15,960 nucleotides of DNA, taken from the IMG/VR virus record IMGVR_UViG_2802429240_000004, positions 1 to 15,960 of that record; one strand, given 5' to 3'. The first letter of the stretch is position 1. Each line of letters starts with the position of its first letter. Source of the DNA: a virus. Taxonomy: Duplodnaviria > Heunggongvirae > Uroviricota > Caudoviricetes. The position numbers and the translations under genes were made by a program. The notes beneath the pieces are model-generated. The model was not told where the DNA came from and did not search any database. It saw only the letters and a list, made by a program, of their open reading frames with translations. This document shows, piece after piece, positions 755-13,733 of the stretch.

Positions 755-1535
755 ATTCCTCCTCCCCGCCATGCATGATCTCCACCATGCGCTGCGTCAT
801 CCGGACAAATCCATTTTCAATAGCCTGCTGATAATCAATGATCACCAGCGCCGACTCCTCGAAAAGGCACTGAATTTCAGCGGGGGCGTGAGCGTAATAG
901 TCCGCAATTTTGCTGAAATTAAACACCGTGTGACGTTCTGCCGCACACAGGAGGAATTTCTCAATATCAGGATCAAGGGACGCCAAACGTATCCGGTTGA
1001 TCAGCTCCTGAGTTTTCGTATTGTCGTACAGTTCACTGATATCCGGTTTACCGCCCGACGGCTCATAAACAGGCGTATCAATTTTCGTCGTATATGGCTC
1101 CTCCTCATTTACTGTATCTGGCAAAACATCCGTCAACAGTTCATCAATTTCTGTCGGGCTGAAGCCTGTCAGGGAGACATCAAAATCAGCATTGATTAGG
1201 TCCGACAGCTCCATCCGTAACAGATCTTCATCCCAGCCAGCATTCATCGGCAGGCGATTATCTGCCAGGCGGTACGCCTTTTTCTGATCATCCGTCAGAC
1301 CAGACAGAATGATGACCGGAACAGAATCCATTTTGAGCACTTCAGCCGCCATAACGCGACCGTGACCAGCAATAATTTCGCCCTTTTCATCAATCAGCAC
1401 CGGATTAGTCCAGCCGAATTGCTTAATGCTTTCTACCAGTTGTGCCACCTGCTCAGGGCTGTGTGTCCTGGCATTGTGTGCATACGGAGACAGTTCTTGT
1501 AACGGGCGATAGACGATCTTCAATTTCTCGCTCAT
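747..1535 (-). CDS. ParB-like nuclease domain (ParB/sulfiredoxin fold) protein
   Basis: 262-aa ORF with GAGG about 5 nt upstream of the ATG. The N-terminal region VYRPLQELSPYAHNARTH...NPVLIDEKGEIIAGHGRVMAAEVL matches the ParB N-terminal domain pattern (..DGhHRl.A). The C-terminal half is acidic. Confidence 0.7.
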   Translation of the reverse strand: MSEKLKIVYRPLQELSPYAHNARTHSPEQVAQLVESIKQFGWTNPVLIDEKGEIIAGHGRVMAAEVLKMDSVPVIILSGLTDDQKKAYRLADNRLPMNAGWDEDLLRMELSDLINADFDVSLTGFSPTEIDELLTDVLPDTVNEEEPYTTKIDTPVYEPSGGKPDISELYDNTKTQELINRIRLASLDPDIEKFLLCAAERHTVFNFSKIADYYAHAPAEIQCLFEESALVIIDYQQAIENGFVRMTQRMVEIMHGGEEEYA

Positions 1536-1658
1536 ACAGCCTCGCTTTATGAATAAAAAAGCCCGCTATCGGCCAGTGCGCTGGGTGCGCGGCGGGTGCT
1601 GATAACGAGCTTTGACATTATCGCAGCCCCTCACACTGAAGGGCTGCTGTAATGCCTG

Positions 1659-1766
1659 TTACTCACGAATCAAACGAGCATGCTGACCACTCATTTCAAT
1701 GCGTAAGTATTGTGGCTTGCCGTCAATCAACGCGGTGATTAACTTGTCACCTGTAGGTTTCCACAT
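1659..1766 (-). CDS. Small hypothetical protein (35 aa) downstream of the lysis genes
   Basis: ORF MWKPTGDKLITALIDGKPQYLRIEMSGQHARLIRE, found by manual translation (below the ORF-track size cut-off). AGGAG lies 7 nt upstream of the ATG. No family recognised. Confidence 0.35.
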   Translation of the reverse strand: MWKPTGDKLITALIDGKPQYLRIEMSGQHARLIRE

Positions 1767-1939
1767 AATTTTCTCCTGTTTTAATGCCCCTTGCCGCCAG
1801 GCAGTTGATCAAAGTTCATCTTGATTCGGCAAGATTTAGAATGAATAAGATAAAATTGGCACACGCAGCAGAATTTCATGCTTTCCGGACGCTGGCGCAC
1901 CCTTCATTTTTCAGCAAAATATTCTGCTATTACAGGCGA

Positions 1940-2122
1940 TCAGTTCTGCATACACTGCCGAACACCGTCGACAATTTCACAGACCTGAGAAGCTGTATCG
2001 AAAAGCTGGCGCGCCTTATCCAGACTGACGCATCCCACCAGAAAAAAAGGCACCAGTATCGCTACCAGTGCCCATTTCGCCGCCGTTCGCGGCATTCTGT
2101 GTGTCCAGTGTTTTCTGCTCAT
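1940..2122 (-). CDS. Small lipoprotein (60 aa) with signal peptide and lipobox LVGC; lysis-associated or exclusion lipoprotein candidate
   Basis: Internal start of track ORF 1940..2194, placed just after the endolysin stop: MSRKHWTHRMPRTAAKWALVAILVPFFLVGC.... Basic n-region, hydrophobic core and L-V-G-C lipobox. The predicted mature part (about 29 aa, three Cys) is not proline-rich, unlike typical Rz1 o-spanins. Confidence 0.5.
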   Translation of the reverse strand: MSRKHWTHRMPRTAAKWALVAILVPFFLVGCVSLDKARQLFDTASQVCEIVDGVRQCMQN

Positions 2123-2136
2123 AACACACCTGGTTA

Positions 2137-2520
2137 TCAGCGTTTCAACTGAAAGTGAGGCCCGTCTTTCAGTGTTTTCCAGTCCCCGCCCCATTCGATG
2201 GCAGTTCCCAGCTCTGCGGCAGCCTGCTTAAATGCCTGCGCGATTTTCTCGTACAGAGGCCAGTCCCATGACACCTGGCTGCCAACCCAGGCAACAACAT
2301 CCACCGCATCACCGGTCAGGTGGCGGCTGTTCATGGTCTGGCTTTTCCCTTCCGCGACCAGCTGTTTCTGGCGTTCTTTCGTGCGCAGCCCTTCCGTAAT
2401 ACCGAAATCAACCTCCGTCAGCTCCAGCGCACGGCGAACGACAGCAACCAGCTGTGGTTTAACGCCCTCCAGATTCTTTTCGCTGCGACGACTAAATCTG
2501 AATTTACCCGACATATTCAC
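2137..2520 (-). CDS. Endolysin, peptidase M15 family (L-alanyl-D-glutamate peptidase / VanY-like)
   Basis: 127-aa ORF with metal-binding motifs SRHLTGDAVD and EWGGDW...DGPHFQL typical of M15 phage endolysins. No N-terminal transmembrane segment. Its start overlaps the stop of the upstream membrane-protein gene. Confidence 0.85.
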   Translation of the reverse strand: MNMSGKFRFSRRSEKNLEGVKPQLVAVVRRALELTEVDFGITEGLRTKERQKQLVAEGKSQTMNSRHLTGDAVDVVAWVGSQVSWDWPLYEKIAQAFKQAAAELGTAIEWGGDWKTLKDGPHFQLKR

Positions 2521-2792
2521 CTCAACAATGGAAAGATTTTTGTGACGTTCCCGCGTGCGCGTATCACCAGCACGCAGAACAGCAGGTTAAAAAACACTTC
2601 CAGCCAGCCCGTTGCTAACGGGCGACCACACAGATAGCTGAGGGGCGCAAAGGCATACAGCAGCATCAGCAGCCAGGCCAGCCATGACATCAGCGGTTTA
2701 TGTCTGGAATCACGGCGACGATAAAAAAAGAGCGTCAGCACGATAACCGTGCATAACACCACATTCAGCAATCCGGGAAGGTTACTTAACAT
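2517..2792 (-). CDS. Small membrane protein (91 aa, 2-3 predicted TM helices); holin/antiholin-like second lysis membrane protein
   Basis: Internal ATG of track ORF 2517..2846 (MLSNLPGLLNVVLCTVIVLTLFFYRRRDSRHKPLMSWLAWLLMLLYAF...). The start overlaps the upstream gene's stop (AATGTTAAGTAA) and the end overlaps the endolysin start, giving a translationally coupled lysis operon. Confidence 0.55.
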   Translation of the reverse strand: MLSNLPGLLNVVLCTVIVLTLFFYRRRDSRHKPLMSWLAWLLMLLYAFAPLSYLCGRPLATGWLEVFFNLLFCVLVIRARGNVTKIFPLLR

Positions 2793-3174
2793 TGCCGCCT
2801 CCTCCGCCCCGCAGGCGGGAGAACAGACCGGACACCAGTGATGCAATATCCTGCTGGTGGATGAATGACAGAATCTTCACCGACACTACCGCGACAAGCA
2901 CCGCGCACAGCGCATCTGCCGATGTACCGTCATAACCTGTTTTTGCCGCTATCCAGGCTGACAGCACACGCGCTCCCAGCACGCCAACAATGAACGACAC
3001 CAGAAAATGCGCCGCCACACGCCAGGCTGAAAGCTGCTGCGGCATCGTTGCCACAAACAACGCCCCGGCGAACGCACCAAACACAATCCCGAAATCCGTT
3101 CCGGTAAACAGCCCGAATACCGTCGCCCCACCGAGCGCCGCAGCCGTGCCGGAACCGGATAAGGGTTCAGACAT
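2782..3174 (-). CDS. Holin-like membrane protein (130 aa, 3-4 predicted TM helices)
   Basis: First gene after the tandem terminator hairpins, with AGGAG 9 nt upstream of the ATG. Gly/Ala-rich hydrophobic helices (AAALGGATVFGLFTG, FGIVFGAFAGALFVA, FLVSFIVGVLGARVL, LCAVLVAVVSV). Position upstream of the endolysin fits a holin. Confidence 0.6.
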   Translation of the reverse strand: MSEPLSGSGTAAALGGATVFGLFTGTDFGIVFGAFAGALFVATMPQQLSAWRVAAHFLVSFIVGVLGARVLSAWIAAKTGYDGTSADALCAVLVAVVSVKILSFIHQQDIASLVSGLFSRLRGGGGGNVK

Positions 3175-3191
3175 ACTTTTTTCTCCTGTAA

Positions 3192-3215
3192 ATAAAAAAG
3201 GGCCACTAGCGGCCC
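3192..3215 (-). terminator. Intrinsic terminator on the minus strand immediately upstream of the holin gene (tR'-like)
   Basis: GGGCC-actagc-GGCCC hairpin (3200-3215) followed on the minus strand by TTTTTTAT (plus 3192-3199). A second hairpin AAAGGCA-cctgcaga-TGCCTTT lies at 3234-3255. Confidence 0.5.
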
Positions 3216-3438
3216 GTAAAAAAACACCCCATCAAAGGCACCTGCAGATGCCTTTTGTGTGGTGTTATTTGATGTGCGCTGGGCGTGGCGCAGATATGAA
3301 AAAGGCCCGCCGTAGCGAGCCTCAGATTAAAGTGCGTGGGTAATTGCTCTCGTATTCATAGCGCTGTATTCACCACATACCCGGATTTTTGATATTGTTA
3401 AATCGCCAAAAGTAACAATGTCTCAAATGAGGTAAGAA

Positions 3439-3591
3439 ATGGGTCAGAATAACAAACCATTAGATGAAAATGACAAATCCAAGTCAGCTCCAAAGCCCAA
3501 ATCAACAGAGGAACCAAAGAAGGATCCTTTTTCCGTAGAGAGATTGGTCGTTGGTGATTCCTGGGGAGGTATCAGAAGAAAAAGTAAATAA
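3439..3591 (+). CDS. Small hydrophilic hypothetical protein (50 aa), convergent with the membrane-protein moron
   Basis: ORF MGQNNKPLDENDKSKSAPKPKSTEEPKKDPFSVERLVVGDSWGGIRRKSK found by manual translation. GAGGT lies 5 nt upstream of the ATG. AT-rich context; its 3' end overlaps the 3' end of the minus-strand gene by 20 nt. Confidence 0.3.
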   Translation: MGQNNKPLDENDKSKSAPKPKSTEEPKKDPFSVERLVVGDSWGGIRRKSK

Positions 3592-4141
3592 CAACAGAAA
3601 CCATTAATGAATAAACGGGGGCAAGGATAGCTGATATCCTTGCCTTCTCGAGTCCTTCTCTCAGTCTTTTATTTTCCTGCAATAATTCGTTTGCAGTTCT
3701 GCACAAAGCCATCAATCTGTACCTTCTCAATATGGACAAACGGCTGTCTTTCCCCGAAAAACCTCGCTCTTTAAACCTGGCGTAATCCATCGCAGTAATG
3801 CCCTTAATTGCCGGAGTGTACAGAATATCTGGCGACGCATGAATAATGGCACGCTTATGCACTTTCAGCACATTAACAACAAGGTACACAGCACAAATGG
3901 ACCAGTAAAAGACAAAAACAGCCAGTCCAGCGCCCAAAAAATCCAGATGAGTTTTTTGCGTTAATAGTAAAAATGATGAACCGATGCCAACTATCAGAAT
4001 GCTTAATAATTTATAGCCATTTTCCTTGTTGATGCTGTTTGAGCAATGGATTTCCCGAATGCACTCTTCTCCCTGTTTTTCAAGAAAATCAAGAATGTCA
4101 TCATCCGCATCAAGAAAATAGTCGCCGGGTAGATTTTTCAT
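3572..4141 (-). CDS. Membrane protein moron (189 aa; acidic N-terminal domain, two central TM helices, basic cytoplasmic domain, C-terminal TM helix)
   Basis: Track ORF 3572..4156 trimmed to the ATG preceded by GAAGGA (MKNLPGDYFLDADDDILDFLEKQGEEC...). Hydrophobic segments LLSILIVGIGSSFLLL, LGAGLAVFVFYWSICAVYLVVNVL and ISAILAPVYSLMVSVVIYFFF. Visibly AT-rich relative to flanking phage genes. Sits between the Q-like gene and the lysis cassette. Confidence 0.6.
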   Translation of the reverse strand: MKNLPGDYFLDADDDILDFLEKQGEECIREIHCSNSINKENGYKLLSILIVGIGSSFLLLTQKTHLDFLGAGLAVFVFYWSICAVYLVVNVLKVHKRAIIHASPDILYTPAIKGITAMDYARFKERGFSGKDSRLSILRRYRLMALCRTANELLQENKRLREGLEKARISAILAPVYSLMVSVVIYFFF

Positions 4142-4213
4142 TCCTTCACCAACCACGTAATCTGTAATACGCTCAATTTTACCTGAACGCCTGACGATGA
4201 AACACCATGTTCA

Positions 4214-4243
4214 CCAGAAACAACAAAACCCGCTCGATGGCGG
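4214..4243 (-). terminator. Terminator-like hairpin downstream of the Q-like gene (minus strand)
   Basis: CCCGC-tcgatg-GCGGG stem-loop (4228-4243) followed on the minus strand by TTTTGTTGTTT. Lies about 100 nt past the Q-like stop, where lambdoid phages place pR' and tR'. Confidence 0.4.
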
Positions 4244-4343
4244 GTTCTATTAAAGTTCAATTGCGCTTGGTTCGCCTCGCGATACAGCTTTGCGAAGCAT
4301 AGCTGAATTGAAGCAGTTTATTGGCAAAAATGCAATAACTTTT

Positions 4344-4886
4344 TTATTGGCTTTCTCCACATAACGCTAATTTCATTGGTATATACAGAATGTGTTCAGC
4401 AACACCCAACCATGCGTCAATGCGATTTCTGCAAGTTTTCAAGCTCCAGCCAGGGCGATACTTATTTAACTGTTGTGCCATTTTCAGCTTACTCATCCCC
4501 CGCCCTTCATATCTTTGTCGGAGGATAAAAATCAATCCAGGATGCTCTGCCATCACTTCACTAATTACCCGGTCAATACATAACGCCTCGGCATCAGTGC
4601 AATGGGACAGCCAGCTTTTTTGCTTACTGTCGATCATCTCACGCAAAAATGCTTCCAGCTCTGGCTTCTCTATTCCCGCTTTTTTCATTCTGCGCAGAGC
4701 TTCATTGATGGCTGTTTTCGTCAATTTTTTGGATGCCAGCAACTGGTTGAACATATTCCCCGTCTTACCGCCACCAATATACGACCAGCGCCCCCACATG
4801 CGCAGTTTTCCCTGAATCCAGACACTTTCCAGCGTGGTGAGACGAAGGTGTTCCCCGCTTTTGCCTGTATTTGTTGGGTAAATCAT
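4344..4886 (-). CDS. Putative late-gene antiterminator Q-like protein (180 aa)
   Basis: Internal ATG of track ORF 4344..5006, overlapping the upstream gene's stop (TTATGA). Positioned as the last gene before the late-promoter/lysis region. Contains an MWGRWS motif resembling the RWGxW motif I recall in Q82/QuuD-type antiterminators. Assignment is by position plus a weak motif only. Confidence 0.5.
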   Translation of the reverse strand: MIYPTNTGKSGEHLRLTTLESVWIQGKLRMWGRWSYIGGGKTGNMFNQLLASKKLTKTAINEALRRMKKAGIEKPELEAFLREMIDSKQKSWLSHCTDAEALCIDRVISEVMAEHPGLIFILRQRYEGRGMSKLKMAQQLNKYRPGWSLKTCRNRIDAWLGVAEHILYIPMKLALCGESQ

Positions 4887-5173
4887 AAATAACCTTCCTT
4901 TCTCCAGATTTCTTGTGTGCGAAAAACACCTTCTGCATGCATCAGGCGTAATTCTTCTTTGGTGTAATCGCTGGTTTTTACCCGCCCGTCGATTAAATCG
5001 TGGCACGAGCTACAGGCAATCGCTGCCTGCATATCGTGTGGCTTTATCGCTGTTCCGCACGTTCCCGCCAGTCGGTAATGCGCCAGCACAGACGTTTCCG
5101 GATCGTGATTGCAGTAGCCAGGAATTCTGACGGTGCACATCTGGCCTTTAGCCGCTTTACGTAAATCCACCAT
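4883..5173 (-). CDS. nin-region Cys-rich protein (DUF1364 / YbcO-like)
   Basis: 96-aa ORF MVDLRKAAKGQMCTVRIPGYCNHDPETSVLAHYRLAGTCGT...ACSSCHDLID, with the conserved Cys/His pattern I recall for DLP12 YbcO-family proteins. Start overlaps the upstream stop (TAATG). Confidence 0.7.
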   Translation of the reverse strand: MVDLRKAAKGQMCTVRIPGYCNHDPETSVLAHYRLAGTCGTAIKPHDMQAAIACSSCHDLIDGRVKTSDYTKEELRLMHAEGVFRTQEIWRKEGYL

Positions 5174-5772
5174 TACGCAAACTCCAGTAGTTGTGCAGCC
5201 ACATTTTCGACTTCCTCCGGAGAGGAGAATTTACGGAACAGAATCCAGTTCCACAGTACGTTGAGTACTGCTTTATAAACCTGCTGAAACTCGGTTTCGT
5301 CCATATTCGCAAAAGCGATGGATTTCGCCCTGCGCCCACGGCTACCATCCGGATAAAAATGCTCGGTGTAAAATCCGGCCTGAATGGTTACCCACTCGCG
5401 GAAAGCCTCAAACGACTTTAGCAATGCCGTATCCTGGGTTCTGCGTGTCGCAACTGTATTCAGATATTGCTCTGCGGCTTCGCTCAGAGCTGGCGTATGT
5501 TCCCGGCCTACTGATTCACACAGGTAATCAACGAATCCTGAAACCAGTTTTCGTTCGCGAGGAGTGATCGCCCCACCGACCGGAGTCCAGTAATCGAATC
5601 CGAGTTGCAGAAGTTTGAAAAAACGCTTATGGAATGCGTAGTTACGTACACGCTTAAAGTCTGCGTGTACCCACTCACCTATTTTGATTTGATGCAAAAA
5701 ATCGCAACTCTCCGGCGTCGCCGGGAGAAGTAATCCGGAAGAGGTTTGTTTGACCAGTTGTATATGTGCCAT
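5173..5772 (-). CDS. nin-region protein (DUF1367-like)
   Basis: 199-aa ORF with GGAGAAA about 5 nt upstream of the ATG. Family assignment is from memory of lambdoid nin-region proteins and is not verified. Confidence 0.6.
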   Translation of the reverse strand: MAHIQLVKQTSSGLLLPATPESCDFLHQIKIGEWVHADFKRVRNYAFHKRFFKLLQLGFDYWTPVGGAITPRERKLVSGFVDYLCESVGREHTPALSEAAEQYLNTVATRRTQDTALLKSFEAFREWVTIQAGFYTEHFYPDGSRGRRAKSIAFANMDETEFQQVYKAVLNVLWNWILFRKFSSPEEVENVAAQLLEFA

Positions 5773-5838
5773 CGGCTTTCTCCGGTGGCACGGTGTTACT
5801 CAGCAGGAGTTCAATCCTGCTCAAGATTGTAGATGAGT

Positions 5839-6099
5839 TTATTCTTCAGCAAAAGCAGAAAAACCAGCCTTAAAACCAATCTCTTTCAAAACCCCTAATG
5901 ATGTGACAAATTCGTCCTCACGCAAAATAAAACCGTCCGTCAGAAGTCCATTACAAAAATAAAATAACGCAGCTCCACTCTTCCTTTGTTGAGACTGTAA
6001 ACATTTAATACGGCAGTGACTGACAATAGCGCCATTCTCAACGCGCACAGTATAGAGGCCATTTTCACTAAAAATTTCACGCAATTCTTCGATTTTCAT
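5839..6099 (-). CDS. Hypothetical protein (86 aa) between the hok locus and the nin genes
   Basis: ORF MKIEELREIFSENGLYTVRVENGAIVSHCRIKCLQ... with GGAAGGA 9 nt upstream of the ATG (the track starts 3 nt earlier at a TTG). Occupies the position of rem next to hokD in the E. coli Qin prophage; no sequence-level claim is made. Confidence 0.5.
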   Translation of the reverse strand: MKIEELREIFSENGLYTVRVENGAIVSHCRIKCLQSQQRKSGAALFYFCNGLLTDGFILREDEFVTSLGVLKEIGFKAGFSAFAEE

Positions 6100-6220
6100 C
6101 AACAGAATCCTTCCAGATAAATAGCACTCCCCTGTTCGGGGTCCATCCCTCTTCTCCCTGCGCGCTACTTAAGTATTTTTGATTCTATTCCGGCACTATC
6201 CAAAACTTCAAACGCGTTGA

Positions 6221-6250
6221 AAATAAAAACAAAAACCCGCCGAAGCGGGT
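6221..6250 (-). terminator. Intrinsic terminator of the hok mRNA (minus strand)
   Basis: ACCCGC-cgaa-GCGGGT hairpin (6235-6250) followed on the minus strand by TTTTGTTTTTATTT. Preceded by the imperfect palindrome GGCGGGAGATTTCTCCCCCGCC (6291-6312), typical of folded hok mRNA 3' ends. Confidence 0.5.
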
Positions 6251-6319
6251 TAAGTGTGGGTGCATTGAGGATGCCTGACACATCAGAGGTGGCGGGAGAT
6301 TTCTCCCCCGCCAGGTCTC

Positions 6320-6472
6320 TTACTCCTCAGGTTCGTAAGCTGTGAAGACAGCGACCTCCGTCTGGCCGGTTCGGATTCGTACCTCGCAGAGGTCTTTCCT
6401 CGTTACCAGTGCCGTCACTATGACGGTTAAACAGATGACGCTCAGGGCGATTAACATCGTCTTTTGCTGCAT
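6320..6472 (-). CDS. hok: Hok/Gef-family type I toxin (small membrane peptide)
   Basis: Manual translation gives MQQKTMLIALSVICLTVIVTALVTRKDLCEVRIRTGQTEVAVFTAYEPEE (below the ORF-track size cut-off). Single TM helix and conserved Cys; nearly identical to my recollection of E. coli HokD/RelF. An in-frame GTG lies one codon upstream. Followed by a strong terminator. Confidence 0.8.
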   Translation of the reverse strand: MQQKTMLIALSVICLTVIVTALVTRKDLCEVRIRTGQTEVAVFTAYEPEE

Positions 6473-6620
6473 CACAGCCTACTTACCCTTACCTTTCGTT
6501 CAAGCGGTAAGGTCACTTTTTCTGTTGTGTGCTAACCAATAAACCTCTTTTATCTGCATTAAAATTCGCTATCATGTCATCCTCAACCTGTTAATAGCCT
6601 ATTATGGACTTTAGTAAACA

Positions 6621-8450
6621 ATGAGCACTTCCGCATACAAGAGCAAAATTCGAACACTCCAGTGCGCGTTAAAAAACGGTGAATTTGAACCATTCATACA
6701 ACATATCCGTTTTCCATACTTTAAAAATATAGAGCAGAATGCAAGGATCGATTTTCAGTTCCCTATAACGGCTTTAGTAGGAAAAAATGGAACTAATAAA
6801 AGTTCTGTTATCAAAGCGCTATTTGGTTGCCCACATGGTAAAAATATAACTCGTTATTGGTTCACAACTGAAACAGATGAGTTTCCTGACCTAAAACTTG
6901 CTGATGGCAGTTCTCTTAAGCCTAGATATATATATGGATATAAAAATGCTGATGGCCGTTTAGTTGAAATACTCCAAGCGCGTATCAATGCTACCAAGAA
7001 AACAATCGATTATTGGGAAACAAGTCGACCATCTGTTGGTGATAACATGGAGAGCATTTCGGATGATCTGGGTGCTAATAGTAATGCAACCAGATGGAAA
7101 AAAATCAAGAAGGGATTGGTTTTCCTAGATTTCAGATCGGAAATAAGTGCATTTGATAGATGTATGTATCACTCTGATCCTAAATTAAGAAAGAAGAAGA
7201 GTGGTGTATTAATTACAAAGCAAGACTATATCAGAAGCAAATCTAAATATATAAAAAAAGCTTTTGATGAAAAGCTAAGTAATTTAAGACTTTGGGGGAC
7301 GGAAACCATTGTTAAAAATATAACCTTGGCGCCAGAACTAGTTGAGCACGTCTCATTTATATTAGGGAAAAAATATAAAGTCATTAAATTTCTTGAGCAT
7401 CGGTTATTTGGAACCAAAGGAGGAACCGTTTTACTTTCAACTGATAAGTTGAACTATACAGAAGCTTTTGCTGGAAGTGGTGAATTTGCAATAGTTTCAC
7501 TAATACTCAATATTTATTCGGCCAAACCTAATTCATTAATTCTTCTTGACGAACCAGAAGTTTCACTTCACCCTGGTGCACAGAAAAGGATGATGGATGT
7601 TCTGTACTCTATTGTTGAGCAGAAAAAACATCAAGTGGTAATATCAACCCATTCTCCTGTTATTGTGAACACTCTTCCCAAAGATGCCATTAAATTATTT
7701 GTTTTTGATGAAGAAAGTGAAACAGCTAAAATAGTTCAAAATATAGCACCGGATGAAGCTTTTATAGAGCTAGGGCATGATATTAACAAGAAAACAATAA
7801 TTGTAGAAGATAAATTAGCTAAAGCAATTATAGATAAAGCGATTAAAAATGATGAAAGATTAAGCTTATCATTTAGTGTAAGTTATATACCAGGTGGTTC
7901 GGAGACCATTTTAAGCAAGCATCTTCCCAGTTACGCTGTGGTAGAACGCAATGATATTTTGTTTTTACTTGATGGTGATAAGAACAAAAAAATAAAACCA
8001 GTAAGAATTAGTGAAATTGCTGATGCTGATTTAGTTAATACAATGTGCAAATATTATGGTTGCGAGTTAATTATCAATGCCAGTGGTAGTAATGGCAAAA
8101 AAAATGAACAAGAATCTAATAGACTCAAAAGGCAAGTGCTTGAGTATGCATTCAATAAAGTGCAGTATTTACCATTTGATACTCCCGAACAATTACTCAT
8201 TGAAAAGGCAATTACGCCAAGTGAAAAAGAAATAATTGATTCACAGACCTGGAGTTCTGATGATCCAGAACTGTATAAGAATCAAATAAGATTATTAGCG
8301 CAACACCTGTATGATAAAGAAGAAGTAAATGCAGAGGAAATTTTTTGCCTCCAACAAATAATGACCGCAAGACTTAAAAATGAATTGCCTGAATTTATAA
8401 AAATAAGAAAAATAATTACTCAGGCTCTTGACCGTGGTATCATTAGGTAG
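6621..8450 (+). CDS. OLD-family ABC-type ATPase with C-terminal TOPRIM-like nuclease domain (609 aa)
   Basis: Walker A GKNGTNKSS, signature-like AGSGEF, Walker B SLILLDEPEVSLHP, H-loop VISTHSP. The C-terminal region has a TOPRIM-like glutamate (TIIVEDKLAKAII) and DxD (LFLLDGDKN). Strongly AT-rich; opposite strand to the surrounding phage genes. Confidence 0.75.
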   Translation: MSTSAYKSKIRTLQCALKNGEFEPFIQHIRFPYFKNIEQNARIDFQFPITALVGKNGTNKSSVIKALFGCPHGKNITRYWFTTETDEFPDLKLADGSSLKPRYIYGYKNADGRLVEILQARINATKKTIDYWETSRPSVGDNMESISDDLGANSNATRWKKIKKGLVFLDFRSEISAFDRCMYHSDPKLRKKKSGVLITKQDYIRSKSKYIKKAFDEKLSNLRLWGTETIVKNITLAPELVEHVSFILGKKYKVIKFLEHRLFGTKGGTVLLSTDKLNYTEAFAGSGEFAIVSLILNIYSAKPNSLILLDEPEVSLHPGAQKRMMDVLYSIVEQKKHQVVISTHSPVIVNTLPKDAIKLFVFDEESETAKIVQNIAPDEAFIELGHDINKKTIIVEDKLAKAIIDKAIKNDERLSLSFSVSYIPGGSETILSKHLPSYAVVERNDILFLLDGDKNKKIKPVRISEIADADLVNTMCKYYGCELIINASGSNGKKNEQESNRLKRQVLEYAFNKVQYLPFDTPEQLLIEKAITPSEKEIIDSQTWSSDDPELYKNQIRLLAQHLYDKEEVNAEEIFCLQQIMTARLKNELPEFIKIRKIITQALDRGIIR

Positions 8451-8473
8451 TGATTCTGGATGCAGAGGGAAAA

Positions 8474-9514
8474 ATGAAAAAAATCAAAGTGTTTGACTTC
8501 TTTTCCGGTTGTGGTGGAACCAGCCAAGGTTTCCATCAAGCTGGAATGGATATTGTTTTTGGCCTCGATTTCGACGTTGATGCAGCCAGTTCATTTCGTG
8601 CAAATTTCCCGCAGGCTGCTTTTATTAACTCGGACATTAGGTTAATCGACAACAATGCCATAAACAAGTTAGTAAAAAAACATCGTAATGATTACATTCT
8701 TTTTTCAGGATGTGCGCCTTGTCAACCGTACTCTAAGCAAAACTCAAATAAAAAAAATGATGATCCACGATTAGATCTATTAAAGGAATTCAGTCGTTTT
8801 GTAGAGCATTATATGCCTGATTTTATTTTTGTTGAAAACGTGCCTGGAATGCAAAAGTTTAACAAAAATGAAGGAACATTCATGATGTTTTTAGAAATGC
8901 TTTCATCAAAGGGATATAGTGTAGATTATAAAGTAATGCCAGCTGCGTGGTACGGTGTACCACAGACGCGAGAAAGATTAGTGCTCATTGCATCCAAGGA
9001 TTTTTATGTCGCATTGCCTTCTCCTACACATGGGGTTGGAAATACTCCCTATTCAACAGTAAAGGACTGGATCGCTAATTTACCGAAGATAGAGGCAGGA
9101 GAAAAGCATAATAGTATTCCTGATCATGAAGCTGCACGCTTATCAGAGCTTAATTTACGTAGAATAAAATGCACTCCTGAAGGTGGAAGTCGAGAATTTT
9201 GGCCAGATGAATTGATTTTAGAATGCCATCGTAACCATAAAGGGCATACAGACGTATATGGACGTTTGAGTTGGGACAAACCAGCCAGCGGACTAACAAC
9301 TCGTTGTATTAGCTATTCAAATGGACGTTTTGGACATCCAACACAAAATCGAGCAATATCGGTTCGTGAAGCAGCGTGTCTACAAACATTTCCTTTGGAT
9401 TATAAATTTATTGGTTCTTTGCAATCTCGGGCTCGTCAAATAGGAAATGCGGTCCCTCCGAAGATGTCTGAAACGATTGGAAAACATTTGCTTAATATAA
9501 TCAAAGCCTCCTAG
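8474..9514 (+). CDS. DNA (cytosine-5)-methyltransferase
   Basis: Motif I FDFFSGCGG, motif IV catalytic GCAPCQPYS, motif VI ENV, motif VIII QTRERLVLIA, motif X IGNAVPP; variable region between VIII and IX. GAGGGA precedes the ATG at 8474; alternatively starts at the GTG at 8450 overlapping the upstream TAG. Operon with the ATPase gene. Confidence 0.85.
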   Translation: MKKIKVFDFFSGCGGTSQGFHQAGMDIVFGLDFDVDAASSFRANFPQAAFINSDIRLIDNNAINKLVKKHRNDYILFSGCAPCQPYSKQNSNKKNDDPRLDLLKEFSRFVEHYMPDFIFVENVPGMQKFNKNEGTFMMFLEMLSSKGYSVDYKVMPAAWYGVPQTRERLVLIASKDFYVALPSPTHGVGNTPYSTVKDWIANLPKIEAGEKHNSIPDHEAARLSELNLRRIKCTPEGGSREFWPDELILECHRNHKGHTDVYGRLSWDKPASGLTTRCISYSNGRFGHPTQNRAISVREAACLQTFPLDYKFIGSLQSRARQIGNAVPPKMSETIGKHLLNIIKAS

Positions 9515-9530
9515 GAGGCTTTATTTTATT
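9501..9530 (+). terminator. Perfect 20-bp palindrome plus T-tract terminating the ATPase-methyltransferase operon (probably bidirectional)
   Basis: AAAGCCTCCTAGGAGGCTTT is identical to its reverse complement and contains the methyltransferase TAG stop; it is followed by TTATTTTATT. Confidence 0.55.
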
Positions 9531-9545
9531 GTTATCCCCTAGTAT

Positions 9546-9977
9546 TTAATCGTGCTCACCAGACAACCTCCTGAAATTACTCTGGTAAAATGCCAGTACA
9601 CGCTGCATAACTTCGCTTTTCCGGCACTCGCGACAGATTATGTTCTGACGCCTGTCGTGGCGGCGTATTTCTCCGTCTGGTAATGACCAGATAAGGTCAG
9701 GATCAACCACAACCGGTTTCTTCGTCTTTGCCCTTGATAGTTTTTTGCGGGCGTTTTGCCAGTCTTTACGCGCCTGCTCAGACGGGAATAATCCGTAGCC
9801 AGAATTGTAAACATCACCACTGGCGACCAGTTCTCTGGCGAGAGTGCTTATGTAATACCTTGATGCACCGGTTTTAGCCTCCAGAGCCCGTAACGTCTCG
9901 CGACCGCTCAGACGTACAAGTTCAACAACCTGCCCTTTAATTTTTTCCCGCTCTTCTGGTGTAAATACTTTTGCCAT
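9546..9977 (-). CDS. Hypothetical phage protein (143 aa)
   Basis: ATG with GGAGG 5 nt upstream (the track ORF starts 15 nt earlier at a TTG). Contains ICRECRK near the C-terminus. No family assigned. Confidence 0.55.
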   Translation of the reverse strand: MAKVFTPEEREKIKGQVVELVRLSGRETLRALEAKTGASRYYISTLARELVASGDVYNSGYGLFPSEQARKDWQNARKKLSRAKTKKPVVVDPDLIWSLPDGEIRRHDRRQNIICRECRKSEVMQRVLAFYQSNFRRLSGEHD

Positions 9978-9992
9978 AGGTGCCTCCGGCAA

Positions 9993-10754
9993 TCACTTTT
10001 CCGATGCAACATGGCGGGAAGAATCAGTAATCTGTCGTACAATATCCCTGTGCTTGTTCAGCTCCCGCAGCGCGGAGCAGACACGCTCCCACTTCTGGAC
10101 ATGATTTTTCGCCCGACGCAGTTCGCGGTTTGCCAGATGCAGCGATGGTAAAATCAGGTCATCGGCTCGCGTTGCAGTAAACGATGGCAACGACTGCACA
10201 ATGTCCGCCACAGTTTCTGTTTTAATTTCTTCCTGTATTGCAGCTTCCGGCGCTGGTAACGCAACATCTGCTGGCTGAGGAAAGGCTTTACCATCATTTC
10301 CCGTTACCGATGCGGCTTTCGGCTCTGCTGGTAAATTATCGTCCGGCATGCAGTAACGAAATTTACCGTTCTGATTTACACGAATCAGACGCCCTTTGCT
10401 GATTGCCATTGCCAGCGTTGAAGCTACTTTGCGTGATGTGGTACCGAACAATGTAGCCAACTCATCAGCCGTTTGTGGTCCGCGTTGTTCAATCGTCGCG
10501 GTTAAATCGCTCTCTGAGATTTTCGCTACTGTCGCCGTGGTGGTTTCTTCCGGCTGTTCTTCTGGCGCTGGCTGTTCCTGCTGAACGTTGTTATCAGCCA
10601 CACGCCAGGTGTATACGCTTTTATCAACGAAGCCAGCCTTTTTCAGTTCCCACAGCTCGTTCAGAACTTCTTCACGACTGATATCAAGTCGCGCAGCCAG
10701 TTCTACCGACGTGGCTTTTCCCATTGCTTTCAGTGCATCAAAAACGGTTTCCAT
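9993..10754 (-). CDS. Hypothetical phage protein (253 aa) with N-terminal winged-helix-like segment and acidic Pro/Glu-rich linker
   Basis: Internal ATG of track ORF 9993..10820 with GGGAGGA 8 nt upstream. [43 protein letters not shown] resembles a wHTH; followed by low-complexity [16 protein letters not shown]. Confidence 0.55.
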
Positions 10755-10788
10755 TAAAATTTCCTCCCGGTAAAAATTACTTCTCAAC

Positions 10789-11454
10789 TCAAACAAACCC
10801 AGCCGCTTTCCGGCGTTCATATTCCTGTTTCAGCAACTCAATTGGAGTTGGCCCCGACGGGCGTTTTGGTGCTACCAGTTGCCGCCGGACGGGCGGAACG
10901 CTGAAGCCGTCACCAACATGCTTTGCCCATTTCGCTAGTTGCCGTTCTGCAAGTCGTTTTAACTCCCCTTCGGTCATCTGACGCTCAATCCCTTTTGCCC
11001 GCATCTCGAGGCAAATGTGATACAGCACGGGCTGAGACCACGGGTATTTATCGCTCCCGTCGTATCGCCAGGACTCGTTGCGCCAGCGGCGGTACTCCTC
11101 CATCACGGCATCCACAGTCAAACCAAACGGATTTGCCCCACTTTCCGAAATCAACGCCACAAACTCAGCCAGGTCAGGAGGCCATGTTTCACCCGCCCGA
11201 CAACGCTCCATGCACTGGCGGCAGACCTGCCGGATTTGCTGCTCAGTCATCGCGCCAATCTGTGCAATCCAGAGCTTCGAAGGTGCGGCCCCGTTCTTCT
11301 GGGTCCAGCGGTTCGAATAAACCTCCCCCATGAGTTCCCACAGCTTCCACGCCGTTTCCGTCGCTGATAAATCCGTTTTCACGTTCCCACTGCTCACGTG
11401 CTGCCCGAATTTCCTGAACTGCCCGTGATGCGGTGCCACCTGGCGTTGCTGCAT
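10789..11454 (-). CDS. Replication protein P-like (helicase loader)
   Basis: Alignable by eye to lambda P: [40 protein letters not shown] versus lambda YPWKSNAHYWLVTNLYQNMRANALTDAELRRKAADELVHM; also [12 protein letters not shown] versus TTMEQVNAGMRVARRQ. AAGGGGGTGA lies upstream of the ATG at 11454. Confidence 0.7.
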
Positions 11455-12367
11455 GGTTCACCCCCTTGCTGACTGGTTTAACCTGCGCCCTGACGTGATT
11501 TACGTGACGGGCGAATTTCTGCTCCCACTGAACCTGCGTGAACACTTTGCCCTCCGCTGCCCAGTAGTCCCGGAAGGCGGCAAGTTCAGCTGGTGTAAAT
11601 TCCGGCTCAGGAAGAGCCACGCCCCACAGCGCAGCCCGTCGTCGAAAATCCGGCGACGGATGCCAGCCATCGGTCATCGGAAATTTCCCGATGGGTTCGC
11701 TCAGGCCTTCCAGGTAATCAGGTTCCGCTGTCTGCAACGGCACGCCATTTGCCTCACTGGCCGGAGCACTCTCGCGCACGCGCGCGTTATGTGTGGGGTT
11801 TATATATCTGTTATCTGTTATCTGGATACCGCATGACAAAGCGTTAGCCTTATCCTTAGGCTTATCCTCAGGCAAAGGGATTGCCTTATCGAATGCCATC
11901 CCCAAAGCCTCAGAAACCCCGTAGGACGCGGCTCTCAGCGATTCCCTGGCCTCCCATTTGAGAGGGCAATCAGGAATTAAAGCGAATGCCTTTGCCCAGG
12001 ATTTAATGACATTTATCGAGTTTGGCGGATTGTGTTTCGCAGCATTCGGGAGCCAAAAAACTCTGGCTTTGATATCTGCTTTCACCATGCCAAGATTCAT
12101 GGCTTCGCCTAAGGCTAAGTCAAAGGCTTCGATATCCCACCCCAACTCTTCAGCCATTGCTGCCCGCCCGGCTTTAAACAACCCAGGAATAATCCCGGTA
12201 AATGGACTGGTCAGCAGATAAATAAACAAACTCTGTCCACTTGGAGGCAGAGGAGATAACGCCCTAAATTTGGGATCATCCCATATCGTTATTTTTACCT
12301 TGCGATAAGGCTCATTGTTTGCCTTAGTTTTTGGCATGGGATTTGGCATGTTTTTAGCCTTAACCAT
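11243..12367 (-). CDS. Replication initiator O-like protein with DnaT-like C-terminal domain
   Basis: Internal ATG (GAGG 6 nt upstream) of track ORF 11243..12421. The C-terminal segment [61 protein letters not shown] matches E. coli DnaT ([29 protein letters not shown]...[20 protein letters not shown]). Its last ~70 codons overlap the P-like gene in another frame. Confidence 0.7.
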   Translation of the reverse strand: [374 protein letters not shown]

Positions 12368-12446
12368 AATTGCCTCATCTGGTGTCGAACCTTCCTCCGG
12401 ATATAATCTGTGATTCCCCAATCAACAGAACCAAAGGAGGTTCGAC

Positions 12447-12902
12447 ATGTCTTTAATGGCTGTTTGCCAAAAAATTAAAAATCACATGCGCACTGTGTAC
12501 AAAATTAACCAGCACGACCACGACATGGTTAACCTGGTAACATGCAGGGCTATAGTTCTCACCCGCTTCCATCTACTTCTTACAAATCACTCACGAGATT
12601 CTCTCCTGAGTCCCAGTAACTATGATTCGCTGGCGAGATTGCTATACCAGGCAAGTGAAAAACGTATTACTGATCCCTTATCTGTTTCTCCTGTCCTTGC
12701 TCTTCACATTCTGGAAGACGCTCTCTATGACCCCCATCAGGAATGCGACTATCAATTTCTTGAAGCTGAGAAATCAATGAGAGAATGGTTCGTTGAATAT
12801 CACGAACGGCAGCAAAAGTTATCCTCAAAGTATTCAGAACTTCCGCAACTTCGCTGGAGTGACCTTCCGAACGAATTATTTGCTCTGACCCCAGAAAATT
12901 AA
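12447..12902 (+). CDS. Hypothetical protein (151 aa), AT-rich, antisense to the early-right operon; conflicts with 12667..13080
   Basis: Strong RBS AAAGGAGG 6 nt before the ATG and a perfect TATAAT hexamer about 40 nt upstream (12402-12407). Globular-looking sequence. Overlaps the minus-strand ORF by 236 nt, so at most one of the two is likely real over that stretch. Confidence 0.4.
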   Translation: MSLMAVCQKIKNHMRTVYKINQHDHDMVNLVTCRAIVLTRFHLLLTNHSRDSLLSPSNYDSLARLLYQASEKRITDPLSVSPVLALHILEDALYDPHQECDYQFLEAEKSMREWFVEYHERQQKLSSKYSELPQLRWSDLPNELFALTPEN

Positions 12903-13080
12903 TTCTTGGGGATAAATCGTCCATAACTGAGCGCAGGCTAAGTTCTGCGCTCTGAAGCTTCCGAACCGAAGTTTCTGTACCCCAACCCGCAATTTCTGCA
13001 TTTTTTGCAAGTTTCAGGATCCAGTCTCGTAGTTCGCCGGGAGTAAGATTTCCAGCATTGATAAACGGTTTGATTTTCAT
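12667..13080 (-). CDS. Hypothetical protein (137 aa) following the YdaT-like gene; conflicts with 12447..12902
   Basis: ATG 20 nt after the YdaT-like stop with a weak RBS. The N-terminal 59 codons lie in unique sequence; the remainder overlaps the plus-strand ORF. Confidence 0.3.
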   Translation of the reverse strand: MKIKPFINAGNLTPGELRDWILKLAKNAEIAGWGTETSVRKLQSAELSLRSVMDDLSPRINFLGSEQIIRSEGHSSEVAEVLNTLRITFAAVRDIQRTILSLISQLQEIDSRIPDGGHRERLPECEEQGQEKQIRDQ

Positions 13081-13099
13081 TGTTAGTTACCCTATTCAC

Positions 13100-13522
13100 T
13101 TAATGAACAACAGCAGAATCGTCGGACGACCCACCACCGCTGAAATGCGCTTTCCGGTAAACGGCTTGGACTGCATCATCATGCGCATCAATTGCCGTAC
13201 TCAACGCTTCCTGCGCCGCCAGTAATGCACGGCGTTCCAGGGTATCGAAGATGCTGAATCGGTGGCGCAGCTCGCGCGGAAGGATTGCCAGAATTGCAGG
13301 GATCAGTTTCTGAATTTTTTCCCTTTGCGCTTCCGTTTCACCTTTCAACCAGCGGTGATAGATATTCTGCTGATTGTTCCAGTCCTTGCCTGGTACCAGG
13401 GGTAATTCGCCGCCCCCCTGGCGCAGATATTCTTCAGTAATTGCGTTAGCGACCCACGCCTGCCCTTTTTCGGCTGCCAGGGCTAACAGCACTGATTCGA
13501 TGTGCTCATGCCTGATTTTCAT
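13100..13522 (-). CDS. YdaT-like protein (CII-like regulator family of Rac-type prophages)
   Basis: 140-aa ORF directly after the Cro-like gene (17-nt overlap), AAGGTGA upstream. Begins MKIRHEHI and ends AVVH, matching my recollection of E. coli YdaT; family call by memory and position. Confidence 0.6.
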   Translation of the reverse strand: MKIRHEHIESVLLALAAEKGQAWVANAITEEYLRQGGGELPLVPGKDWNNQQNIYHRWLKGETEAQREKIQKLIPAILAILPRELRHRFSIFDTLERRALLAAQEALSTAIDAHDDAVQAVYRKAHFSGGGSSDDSAVVH

Positions 13523-13733
13523 GAATCACCTTCCCTGCTCGCTTTGCCTTACGATATTCGTCATAAACGTTGGGGTCGTACTGAAGCTCCCCGCCGGATG
13601 CCTCCTGCAGGCGCATCGCGCGGCCTTCAGGAACCAGTTCCCCCCATGCAGCAATGCTTGCCAGCCTCACCCCTGCAGCATTCGCGAGCTTCGTTTTGCT
13701 GCCAAAAAAAGCTATAGCATCGGTTTTCAACAT
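13506..13733 (-). CDS. Cro-like HTH regulator
   Basis: 75-aa ORF divergent from the repressor, AAGGAG 6 nt upstream. DAIAFFGSKTKLANAAGVRLASIAAWGELVPEGRAMRLQEASGGELQYDPNVY parallels lambda Cro ([26 protein letters not shown]...INADGSVYAEEVKPF). Confidence 0.7.
   Translation of the reverse strand: MLKTDAIAFFGSKTKLANAAGVRLASIAAWGELVPEGRAMRLQEASGGELQYDPNVYDEYRKAKRAGKVIHENQA

Follow-up and report, generated by a model that had tools for sequence, protein, structure and literature searches.

OLD-family ABC/TOPRIM proteins are central to P2 Old, Gabija, PARIS and some retron systems. Each known OLD class has a different partner, and how OLD proteins recognise self and non-self is debated. HEC-04 is a defence system made up of one ATPase-TOPRIM gene, and mutation of Walker A or of the E/D/D residues abolishes its protection; it has been found within methylase-containing Hma systems, and its induction is toxic (bioRxiv 10.1101/2024.01.29.577857). 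PARIS senses Ocr and cleaves tRNA, with AriB reported as a tRNase, and P2 Old has been reported as an abortive tRNase. Among restriction enzymes, R.HgiDII carries an ATPase domain of the GHKL type (PMC2441816), and GHKL-HK and Response_reg_2 families have been described as associated with restriction-modification (R-M) (PMC8011034).

The locus studied here lies in a 15,960-nt stretch of DNA, referred to as the window, and is a prophage-borne cassette of two + strand genes encoding an OLD-family ABC-ATPase/TOPRIM protein and then a C5-cytosine methyltransferase. Since the two genes stay together in many bacterial phyla, we favour an undescribed R-M-like module over two unrelated passengers, and give roughly even chances to a self-contained, ATP-dependent, R-M-like defence module of two genes, carried as a moron in a Rac-like or lambdoid prophage. 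The earlier note knew of no named system with this architecture, and none was found in the literature searched on OLD/TOPRIM proteins and cytosine methyltransferases; in OLD reviews and papers from 2023 to 2026, Classes 1-4 appear alone, none with a methylase partner.

Cassette layout and the two proteins

The earlier note had described the cassette as AT-rich, opposite in strand to the phage operon and closed by a perfect palindromic terminator, and all three features are borne out. GC content is 33-40% over positions 6501-9500 compared with 45-58% in the flanks, the drop starting at about 6500, and the flanking gene blocks (747-6475 and 9546-13733) are both on the - strand, leaving the cassette antisense to the phage operons. 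Its 5' boundary, placed at 6540-6620 (+ strand) by the GC drop, comprises the presumed promoter and leader of the ATPase gene and is abutted by the upstream region of a divergent neighbour, a hokD-like gene (6320-6475, - strand). A promoter scan of the + strand over 6476-6620 yielded no convincing sigma-70 promoter-like site, and no strong Shine-Dalgarno sequence was found ahead of the ATPase gene in the 6540-6620 leader. At the 3' boundary (9503-9530, both strands), a terminator-like scan and direct reading of the sequence identified a perfect 20-nt palindrome, AAAGCCTCCTAGGAGGCTTT, at 9503-9522, followed by ATTTTATT. The palindrome has a stem of 8-9 bp, a 4-nt loop (CTAG) holding the methylase stop codon and T-rich tails on both strands; it scores as terminator-like in either direction and is likely a bidirectional terminator for the methylase and DUF977 genes, which converge on it. 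Scanned for Rfam families and tRNAs, the window gave no match.

The first gene (6621-8450, + strand; stop codon 8448-8450) encodes 609 amino acids and was assigned by Pfam, PADLOC and AF2/Foldseek. Its ABC-ATPase domain (aa 23-375, 6687-7745), delimited by invariant motif residues and by AAA_21 over residues 49-350, contains two family-specific inserts. The motifs listed in the earlier note are all present in the translation, namely VGKNGTNKSS, LILLDEPEVSLHP, ISTHSP, IIVEDK (E396) and LLDGDKN (D451/D453). In an alignment of 38 sequences, Walker A (G54-K60-S61), the signature AGSGE (284-288), Walker B (D310-E311), the H-loop (H344) and the TOPRIM E and DxD are invariant, and the insert regions are strongly conserved across phyla. 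The TOPRIM core (aa ~389-490, 7785-8090) holds the catalytic-type residues E396 (7806-7808) and D451-G-D453 (7971-7979), and is followed by a C-terminal helical region (aa 491-609, 8091-8447) with invariant E523, K553 and Q578.

Profile searches matched AAA_21 (2.7e-21) and AAA_15 (1.9e-20) in Pfam and HEC-04 (8e-35) and ATPase-Toprim_I-B (4.6e-26) in PADLOC. The families expected by the earlier note were thus recovered far beyond chance for AAA_21, AAA_15 and, in the second protein, DNA_methylase, but not for TOPRIM: no TOPRIM-type Pfam family, including the OLD-like TOPRIM model, matched the 609-aa protein at E <= 0.1. The PADLOC Old and GajA models align with the ATPase segment alone (about residues 301-373), the AriA HMMs match just the ATPase part, and the sequence match to Thermus scotoductus (Ts) OLD 6p74 (E 4e-6 over 62 residues) is limited to the ATPase motifs. 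In full-length Foldseek searches with the AF2 model (pLDDT 85), Ts OLD 6p74 (2e-13) and GajA were the best matches, with OLD, GajA, PtuA and SMC heads the closest overall; for the C-terminal domain, the TOPRIM-like fold that had been proposed was found, its nearest neighbours being the OLD and AriB C-terminal domains with 6p74 as the best. Judged by sequence and model, the protein is an ABC-ATPase of the OLD family with a C-terminal TOPRIM-like domain and predicted nuclease activity.

The second gene (8474-9514, + strand; 346 aa) was assigned by Pfam (DNA_methylase, 4.9e-61, whole profile covered), TIGR00675 (dcm, 1.4e-48) and PADLOC (MTase_II, 1.3e-96). Its sequence is that of a complete m5C methyltransferase and contains every catalytic motif: I (8492-8518), IV (PCQ, 8717-8725), VI (ENV, 8834-8842), VIII (QTRER), IX and X (GNAVPP, 9443-9460). 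The full set recorded before (FDFFSGCGG, PCQ, ENV, QTRERL, GNAVPP) is present in the translation, and 16 orthologues from several phyla show no variation in the catalytic motifs. Translation most likely starts at ATG 8474, which has a GAGG 5 nt upstream (8465-8468, read directly from the sequence) and corresponds to the ATG used in RefSeq and NCBI assembly gene calls. A start at GTG 8450, overlapping the ATPase stop codon, is less likely given this Shine-Dalgarno-like GAGG and the RefSeq calls. The genes had been said to overlap or abut, which is true of the reading frame, open from 8450, but the likely start leaves a 23-nt spacer (8451-8473, + strand). A homologue 63% identical to the methylase is labelled 'Modification methylase HgiDII' at source, and by this one source label the enzyme appears to belong to an HgiDII-like family. 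The HgiDII site GTCGAC occurs twice in the window against 2.04 sites expected, 16 kb being too short for this comparison to have power.

Linkage and genomic context

Homologues of the ATPase are numerous (2,299 at E <= 1e-5 among the candidates scored) and occur in many phyla. We surveyed the neighbourhoods of 80 homologous loci from different species and phyla, tallying counts by hand. A methylase orthologue was present in 68 of the 80, and in 57 it adjoined the ATPase gene in the same orientation, either gene coming first; nine further loci carried a C5-methylase of another family and three showed none, so that any C5-methylase was found in 77/80. The pair occurs in Proteobacteria, Actinobacteria, Bacteroidota, Firmicutes, Acidobacteria, Planctomycetes and other phyla. 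When a degenerate DNA pattern for motif X was searched over the ATPase loci of viral contigs, it lay beside the ATPase in 58 of 63, and reverse look-up from methylase orthologues found the ATPase directly upstream in all three cases. Homologues of both genes are therefore strongly linked elsewhere, and this linkage across phyla supports the functional tie between methylase and nuclease suggested in the earlier note.

The stop codon of one gene can overlap or abut the start codon of the other, and convergent and divergent arrangements are also seen (L062, L027 and several viral loci). At one locus, the pair stands alone among housekeeping genes, outside phages and with a 4-nt gene overlap, which argues that no other gene is needed. 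The identities of methylase and ATPase drop together with distance; between two E. coli variants, the methylase is the more conserved partner (63% identity versus 39% for the nuclease). At an Agromyces locus (L025), no C5-methylase was detectable within 8 kb of the ATPase.

The partner methylase comes from at least three C5 families (HgiDII-like, HpaII-like and others). In three Bacteroidota loci, an HpaII-like methylase, a conventional R.HpaII and the ATPase-TOPRIM gene share an operon, the last lying directly behind R.HpaII, and the ATPases of these loci are no more divergent than those with the usual methylase. Other Bacteroidota variants carry GHKL-histidine-kinase and Response_reg_2 genes between the methylase and ATPase-TOPRIM genes; the four-gene form (L079) is the sole place where a GHKL domain is present, the proteins of the window having none. 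A Bacillota locus (L054) has two C5-methylase genes, separated from the ATPase-TOPRIM gene by a Vsr gene. We suggest that the methylase swaps and the variants with R.HpaII, Vsr or GHKL/two-component genes reflect an undescribed modular link between C5-methylation and an ATP-dependent nuclease.

The best reading of the cassette's own position is that of a moron in a variable site of a Rac-like or lambdoid prophage, between the DUF977 gene and hokD, an interval that other genomes fill with different cargo, among it a SIR2-family protein. The P. syringae pair comes after a CI-like repressor gene of the same strand, and in Yersinia and Burkholderia it adjoins an integrase. Neither the cassette DNA nor the ATPase protein had a match in 50,697 deposited phage genomes. 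The 39%-identical ATPase variant gave weak matches to ATPase motifs alone in phage genomes (e.g. lambda Ea59), and plasmids yielded a single near-full-length ATPase match, at 31% identity.

Proposed mechanism and rival explanations

We propose that the methylase would place 5-methylcytosine on the DNA of the lysogen and on the prophage itself, and that restriction would fall to the OLD-family protein. Through its ABC-ATPase head, which probably dimerises or forms larger oligomers like that of other OLD proteins, it would engage nucleic acid and control the C-terminal TOPRIM nuclease, which would attack incoming DNA that does not carry the m5C mark, thereby excluding superinfecting phages and making loss of the cassette costly. 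We infer that the nuclease acts on DNA, that m5C blocks it and that the pair defends against phages, methylation presumably providing self-protection. The antisense position, the own terminator, the variable-cargo interval and the repressor and integrase neighbours support a defence module. Its R-M-like character is supported by the HgiDII label and by the GHKL/Response_reg_2 variants, which belong to families described as R-M-associated; the greater conservation of the methylase and the occurrence of all gene orientations are, moreover, typical of R-M pairs. Among the points that count against it, the nuclease gene comes first in the operon and there is no C-protein, which leaves safe establishment in a new host unexplained; P2 Old and PARIS AriB are reported tRNases, so the substrate could be RNA; and in L025 no nearby C5-methylase was detectable.

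Given that the methylase family is sometimes swapped (e.g. for M.HpaII with R.HpaII), we consider generic recognition of the m5C state, or of the methylase, more likely than a nuclease with its own fixed target sequence. The HpaII-type loci with their undiverged ATPases, a further point against the R-M-like reading, are hard to reconcile with a nuclease having its own matched sequence specificity.

The same swaps bear on the rival that survives best, which we nevertheless judge unlikely: a methylase-coupled abortive or 'guard' system, in which an OLD-like sensor-effector is held inactive by, or monitors, the C5-methylase and, once triggered, attacks host or phage nucleic acid (perhaps tRNA), with methylation itself not being self-protecting. 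Triggers could be phage inhibition of the methylase, SAM depletion, or titration of the methylase by unmethylated replicating phage DNA. A partner that is always a C5-methylase, yet comes from at least three families, fits the sensing of a generic feature of m5C-methylases, and the strong conservation of the ATPase inserts across phyla points to a ligand that is itself conserved, and not to DNA sites that vary. Other OLD-type ABC/TOPRIM systems are triggered abortive effectors (PARIS and P2 Old; HEC-04 is toxic when induced), and the Bacteroidota loci with a complete HpaII R-M system resemble a backup layer. The common two-gene form, however, has no primary restriction enzyme to back up, and the convergent and divergent arrangements are less expected for an obligate protein complex. 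In addition, the methylase retains every catalytic motif across phyla, which argues that its enzymatic activity, beyond its mere presence, is under selection.

Orphan methylases are common on phages, and HEC-04, IbfA, P2 Old, V. cholerae (Vc) OLD and YbjD all act as single genes. Together with L025, this would fit two separate, co-selected functions, that is, a stand-alone Class 1 OLD/HEC-04/IbfA-like defence next to an orphan or anti-restriction methylase shielding the mobile element from host enzymes. We consider this very improbable: the linkage in genome, viral and reverse look-ups is too deep and reciprocal for hitch-hiking (77/80, with 57 adjoining orthologues; 58/63; 3/3), the two proteins lose identity in step as distance grows, the genes overlap or adjoin at their stop and start codons, and the pair also turns up away from phages, in housekeeping surroundings. 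The 'independent cargo' option of the earlier note is hence not supported.

A very improbable third reading, a C5-methylase repair accessory in which a MutS-/Rad50-like ABC ATPase and a TOPRIM nickase would act on T:G mismatches from m5C deamination or on covalent methylase-DNA adducts, as Vsr does for Dcm, would explain why the partner is always of the C5 class (to our knowledge, a dedicated repair nuclease, Vsr, regularly accompanies no other methylase class), why the link survives methylase-family swaps, which sequence-independent repair would tolerate, and the gene's place right behind R.HpaII, but the characterised relatives are all defence or toxic nucleases, and the prophage-hotspot, integrase-adjacent and repressor-adjacent positions fit defence morons better than repair genes. 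As a substitute for Vsr, the ATPase-TOPRIM protein is a weakened candidate, since in L054 a Vsr gene lies alongside it and is thus not replaced.

Returning to the R-M-like reading, if true it would make TOPRIM a further fold employed in restriction. The pair is native to E. coli prophages and has two genes, which makes it a simple system for host-controlled-modification assays. Its annotation names are generic ('ATP-dependent nuclease', 'DNA cytosine methyltransferase'), so the clade may be overlooked in defence-system censuses.

Comparison with known systems

Similar to the cassette protein, Class 1 OLD proteins (P2 Old, Thermus scotoductus OLD, V. cholerae OLD and E. coli YbjD) combine an N-terminal ABC ATPase and a C-terminal TOPRIM with E and DxD in one polypeptide, and P2 Old is likewise prophage-borne. 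By definition, Class 1 genes stand alone and have no conserved partner, whereas this clade has a conserved C5-methylase neighbour, seen in 77/80 genome loci and, as motif X, in 58/63 viral ones. HEC-04/IbfA (PADLOC PDLC04149) shares the fused ABC ATPase-TOPRIM arrangement, and HEC-04 is the best defence-HMM match (8e-35), aligning residues 232-459 of the 609 with profile positions 160-383 (224/494). With a 494-position profile for HEC-04 and a 1557-bp gene (~518 aa) for ibfA, both act alone, without a dedicated adjoining C5-methylase.

GajA of Gabija (Class 2), the ATPase-TOPRIM DNA endonuclease of a two-gene defence, is among the best full-length structural matches. Its partner, however, is the UvrD-like helicase GajB, and Gabija discriminates self from non-self without methylation; no UvrD/PcrA-like helicase (gajB) occurs in the surveyed loci or in the gene list of the window, which places hokD and the methylase next to the ATPase gene. 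Class 3 (retron) systems have an adjoining reverse transcriptase and an msr/msd non-coding RNA, but the window has no reverse transcriptase among its genes and no Rfam match. PARIS (Class 4) has a separate AriA ATPase and AriB TOPRIM, whereas both domains are fused in the cassette protein. WonAB, an OLD-ABC ATPase with a PD-(D/E)xK nuclease, is a different system.

Among methylase-containing systems, HgiDII-type/paraMORC R-M likewise pairs a C5-methylase with a large, ATPase-containing putative restriction protein, but that ATPase is of the GHKL/MORC type and the one described here is an ABC-type OLD ATPase with TOPRIM; papers on these systems (including PMC2441816 and PMC8011034) make no mention of an ABC/TOPRIM component. 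The TOPRIM-like nuclease domain also lies outside the Type II folds PD-(D/E)xK, HNH, GIY-YIG, PLD and half-pipe. The 2008 fold classification of Type II restriction enzymes never mentions TOPRIM (PMC2441816), and no characterised restriction endonuclease with this fold turned up, short of a targeted search, which likewise counts against the R-M-like reading. Lactococcal AbiR with M.LlaKR2I is a non-canonical defence that depends on a particular DNA methylase, both to function and to avoid being toxic (PMC13064643); it differs in having three unrelated proteins (sigma-like, ParB-like and Snf2-nuclease), a methylase from a neighbouring Type II system and no OLD protein. Type I and III R-M systems share the logic of a methylase and an ATP-hydrolysing restriction subunit in one operon, but use SF2 helicase-type motors, PD-(D/E)xK nucleases and N6-adenine methylases with specificity subunits, as opposed to an ABC ATPase, TOPRIM and a monomer-type C5-methylase. 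We tentatively regard, at somewhat less than even chances, the clade as a fifth, methyltransferase-coupled OLD class: a widespread two-gene R-M-like system whose ABC-ATPase/TOPRIM restriction subunit would tell self via 5-methylcytosine or the C5-methylase itself, whichever methylase family is present. Such a partner would give OLD nucleases an explicit epigenetic self-mark.

Conserved pairing of two enzymes with intact motifs

All sequence motifs quoted in the earlier note are present in the translations of both genes, and profile searches bear out the ATPase and methylase families it had proposed. The 609-aa protein matches AAA_21 (2.7e-21) and AAA_15 (1.9e-20), as well as SMC_N, while its neighbor, the C5-cytosine methylase, matches DNA_methylase along the full length of its profile (4.9e-61) and TIGR00675 dcm (1.4e-48). 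Across 38 aligned homologues, with identities as low as 37%, residues G54, K60, S61, the AGSGE signature, D310/E311, and H344 of the ATPase are invariant, and so are E396-D397 and D451-G452-D453, the glutamate and DxD expected of TOPRIM. The full-length AlphaFold model (pLDDT 85) finds its best PDB match in the Class 1 OLD nuclease of Thermus scotoductus (6p74, E 2e-13), followed by GajA of Gabija; both alignments span ~625-656 columns, that is, both domains. For the predicted structure of the C-terminus (residues 375-609, pLDDT 92.8), each of the top five Foldseek hits is to the C-terminal region of an OLD protein (probability 0.98-1.0). Since the structural match scores are modest and a Pfam search of the 609-aa protein returned no match to a curated TOPRIM HMM, this domain is best regarded as a predicted OLD-type TOPRIM, remote but consistent.

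The methylase seems to belong to the HgiDII-like family, going by a single source label, that on a 63% homologue. Its nearest solved structures by sequence are eukaryotic DNMT1 catalytic domains (E ~1e-38), which match in two stretches either side of the target-recognition region and rank well above M.HaeIII (1e-20) and M.HhaI (1e-14).

A survey of one genome per species yielded 80 loci with ATPase relatives (31-63% identity) from Proteobacteria, Actinobacteria, Bacteroidota, Firmicutes, Acidobacteria, Planctomycetes, Patescibacteria, and others. Searching these by tblastn with the window methylase revealed an orthologue (31-72% identity, at least 155 bits) in 68 loci, one copy being truncated where its contig ends. 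Counted by hand, 57 of these orthologues share the strand of the ATPase gene and directly adjoin it (on its downstream side in 35 loci, on its upstream side in 22); another two adjoin it on the opposite strand, and the remaining nine are 1.7-4.8 kb away. In nine further loci, a C5-methylase from a different family lies within 1-3 kb, which leaves three where none was seen; two of these are a contig of 1.9 kb and a gene at the edge of its contig. The linkage also holds in viruses, where methylase motif X is found beside the ATPase in 58 of 63 IMG/VR contigs carrying it (of the five exceptions, three are contigs that break off within or right at the ATPase gene), and in the reverse direction: starting from methylase orthologues of Yersinia enterocolitica, Pseudomonas syringae, and Burkholderia cenocepacia, the ATPase gene was immediately upstream in 3/3. 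In a metagenomic bacterium, the two genes of the pair overlap by 4 nt and stand by themselves in a housekeeping neighborhood. A 635-aa ATPase homologue of Agromyces sp. (L025, 7806-9713), flanked by a 607-aa protein without Pfam match and a TM2/DUF2510 protein, has no C5-methylase detectable within 8 kb either side and may be a solitary member.

Prophage context and cassette layout

The window is the whole 15,960-bp contig PTSL01000043.1 of assembly GCA_002965885.1 and part of a Rac-like/lambdoid prophage. Its minus strand carries the lysis genes and an antiterminator-like DUF1133 gene, then YbcO, DUF1367, Rem (5839-6099), and the Hok/Gef-family toxin gene hokD (6320-6475), the latter two immediately left of the cassette. 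To its right, also on the minus strand, are DUF977, DUF1627, lambda-P-like and DnaT-like replication genes, YdaT, and a Cro-like gene; an HTH repressor gene and kilR occupy the plus strand. Precomputed Pfam matches at the left end place a TAGT gene (PF20691, 1-754) overlapping a ParB_N gene (747-1535), both on the minus strand; with these two, the prophage may contain another gene pair related to DNA modification.

Between hokD and the DUF977 gene, the ATPase (6621-8450) and methylase (8450/8474-9514) ORFs lie on the plus strand, opposite to the phage genes on either side, and their AT-richness is equally as first described (GC 33-40% over 6501-9500 vs 45-58% in the flanks). Of the two arrangements considered earlier, overlapping or abutting genes, the second stands: a GTG at 8450 overlaps the ATPase stop codon (8448-8450) and is disfavored as a start, whereas the ATG at 8474 has a GAGG at 5-nt spacing upstream and is the start used by RefSeq and assembly gene calls, which makes the two genes abutting neighbors 23 nt apart. 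The perfect palindrome AAAGCCTCCTAGGAGGCTTT (9503-9522), with the methylase stop codon in its loop and T-rich tails on both strands, scores terminator-like in both directions, in agreement with its reading as the terminator of the cassette. Ahead of the ATPase gene, a site scan and sequence inspection found no convincing promoter or Shine-Dalgarno sequence. The putative promoter region of the ATPase gene shares sequence with the upstream region of hok, and an Rfam scan of the window, including the hok region, gave no Sok-like or other family above threshold.

Two variants of the cassette are present, and both are rare, in complete E. coli genomes. The window type occurs in 32/5,426, at 99.2-99.3% identity and at the same insertion site, with no copy at 100% among the 5,426; an identical ATPase protein has database entries under Escherichia sp. 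14.0985 and 'MULTISPECIES Escherichia'. The second variant (eight of the 5,426; 6001-8835 in loci L083-L088) encodes a 596-aa ATPase and a 346-aa methylase, 39% and 63% identical to those of the window, and occupies a different site, flanked by the Q antiterminator gene on one side and by TerB or holin/lysis genes on the other. These latter prophages also carry Dam and N6_N4 methylase genes, and match H59 points to a third variant, ~71% identical. The DUF977-hokD interval (window flanks 5800-6560 and 9515-10300) is a variable cargo hotspot in E. coli prophages; alternative cargo comprises a SIR2-family plus HTH protein, DUF4209, QueH, an alpha/beta hydrolase, the Paa adhesin, DUF551, DUF7167, and KilA-N. 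In a P. syringae prophage (L166, 934-4523), the pair directly follows a CI-like repressor gene (HTH_3 + Peptidase_S24) and shares its strand, a placement which suggests that it is expressed in the lysogen, and in Yersinia and Burkholderia it lies beside an integrase. Judged against general knowledge of prophage morons, these placements are typical of accessory or defense genes expressed in the lysogen.

Locus variants and possible modes of action

In the simplest model, for which the case seems to us evenly balanced, the pair is an ATP-dependent R-M-like module: the methylase would supply an m5C mark and the OLD-type protein would restrict DNA without it. This model is supported because the linkage is deep and reciprocal, both enzymes keep intact catalytic motifs, the methylase is more conserved than the nuclease, all gene orientations occur, and the pair is self-sufficient. 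Our confidence goes no further because relatives such as PARIS and P2 Old are described as RNases that act abortively once triggered, not as enzymes restricting DNA, and because of two features of the variant loci, exchange of the methylase family and coexistence with R.HpaII.

Three Bacteroidota loci (L065, 5642-9743; L067, 5603-9713; L047, 4770-9755) combine an HpaII-like methylase, R.HpaII (PF09561, E down to 6e-144), and the ATPase-TOPRIM gene, in this order, in one operon of overlapping or abutting ORFs, to which L047 adds a 373-aa protein without Pfam match. Their ATPases are 42-43% identical to those of two loci retaining the usual methylase (L079 and L034), whereas the methylases are only 23% identical, and the methylase family has thus been swapped without unusual change in the ATPase. 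Both features are hard to square with a nuclease that has a matched recognition sequence of its own; generic sensing of m5C or of the methylase by the nuclease would accommodate them better, as would a guard monitoring the methylase. Common to all variant loci described is a C5-cytosine methylase as partner of the ATPase, and no partner from another methylase class was found among the loci with neighboring genes inspected.

Elizabethkingia L079 (2163-9782) illustrates a four-gene Bacteroidota variant, comprising, in order, the methylase, a 1001-aa GHKL protein (HATPase_c_3 + HEF_HK + HATPase_c, a histidine-kinase ATPase domain), a 548-aa Response_reg_2 protein, and the ATPase-TOPRIM gene; at the domain level this variant is defined by L079, with L041, L058, and L061 sharing its gene spacing. 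These HK-like and RR-like families have been described as C5-methylase partners in R-M/paraMORC contexts, with no mention of an ABC/TOPRIM gene.

A repair role of the ATPase-TOPRIM protein analogous to that of Vsr is weakened by a Bacillota locus (L054, 7962-12479) in which its gene is followed by that of the Vsr mismatch endonuclease itself and then by two consecutive C5-methylase genes. That the two genes are independent cargo, as the earlier note had also considered, is effectively excluded by their linkage.

Relation to described OLD systems

The R-M-like reading would make the finding an R-M-like system; it may alternatively be classified as an OLD class defined by its C5-methylase partner. 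The initial impression that no named system has this architecture holds for the OLD classes and the full-text literature searched, in which neither the ATPase/methylase combination nor the RefSeq accessions are described. The main risk to novelty is a prior listing of such pairs as putative systems, as may exist in REBASE or Krishnan et al., 2020, which lay outside this search.

Among defense-library models, the window ATPase is best matched by HEC-04 (8e-35), though over part of the model, and by the ATPase-Toprim_I-B of retrons (4.6e-26). Experiments have validated HEC-04 as a defense that consists of a single ATPase-TOPRIM gene, and IbfA, a two-domain ATPase-TOPRIM protein interfering with phage UAB_Phi20, is its reported homologue. 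R.HgiDII, the known partner of the HgiDII-like methylase family, is an ATPase-domain restriction enzyme, and the window methylase is likewise paired with an ATPase protein. Reviews and primary papers on OLD proteins, dated 2019 through July 2026, recognize four classes, namely single gene, Gabija, retron, and PARIS, none of which has a methylase partner, whereas the window clade is partnered by a C5-methylase.
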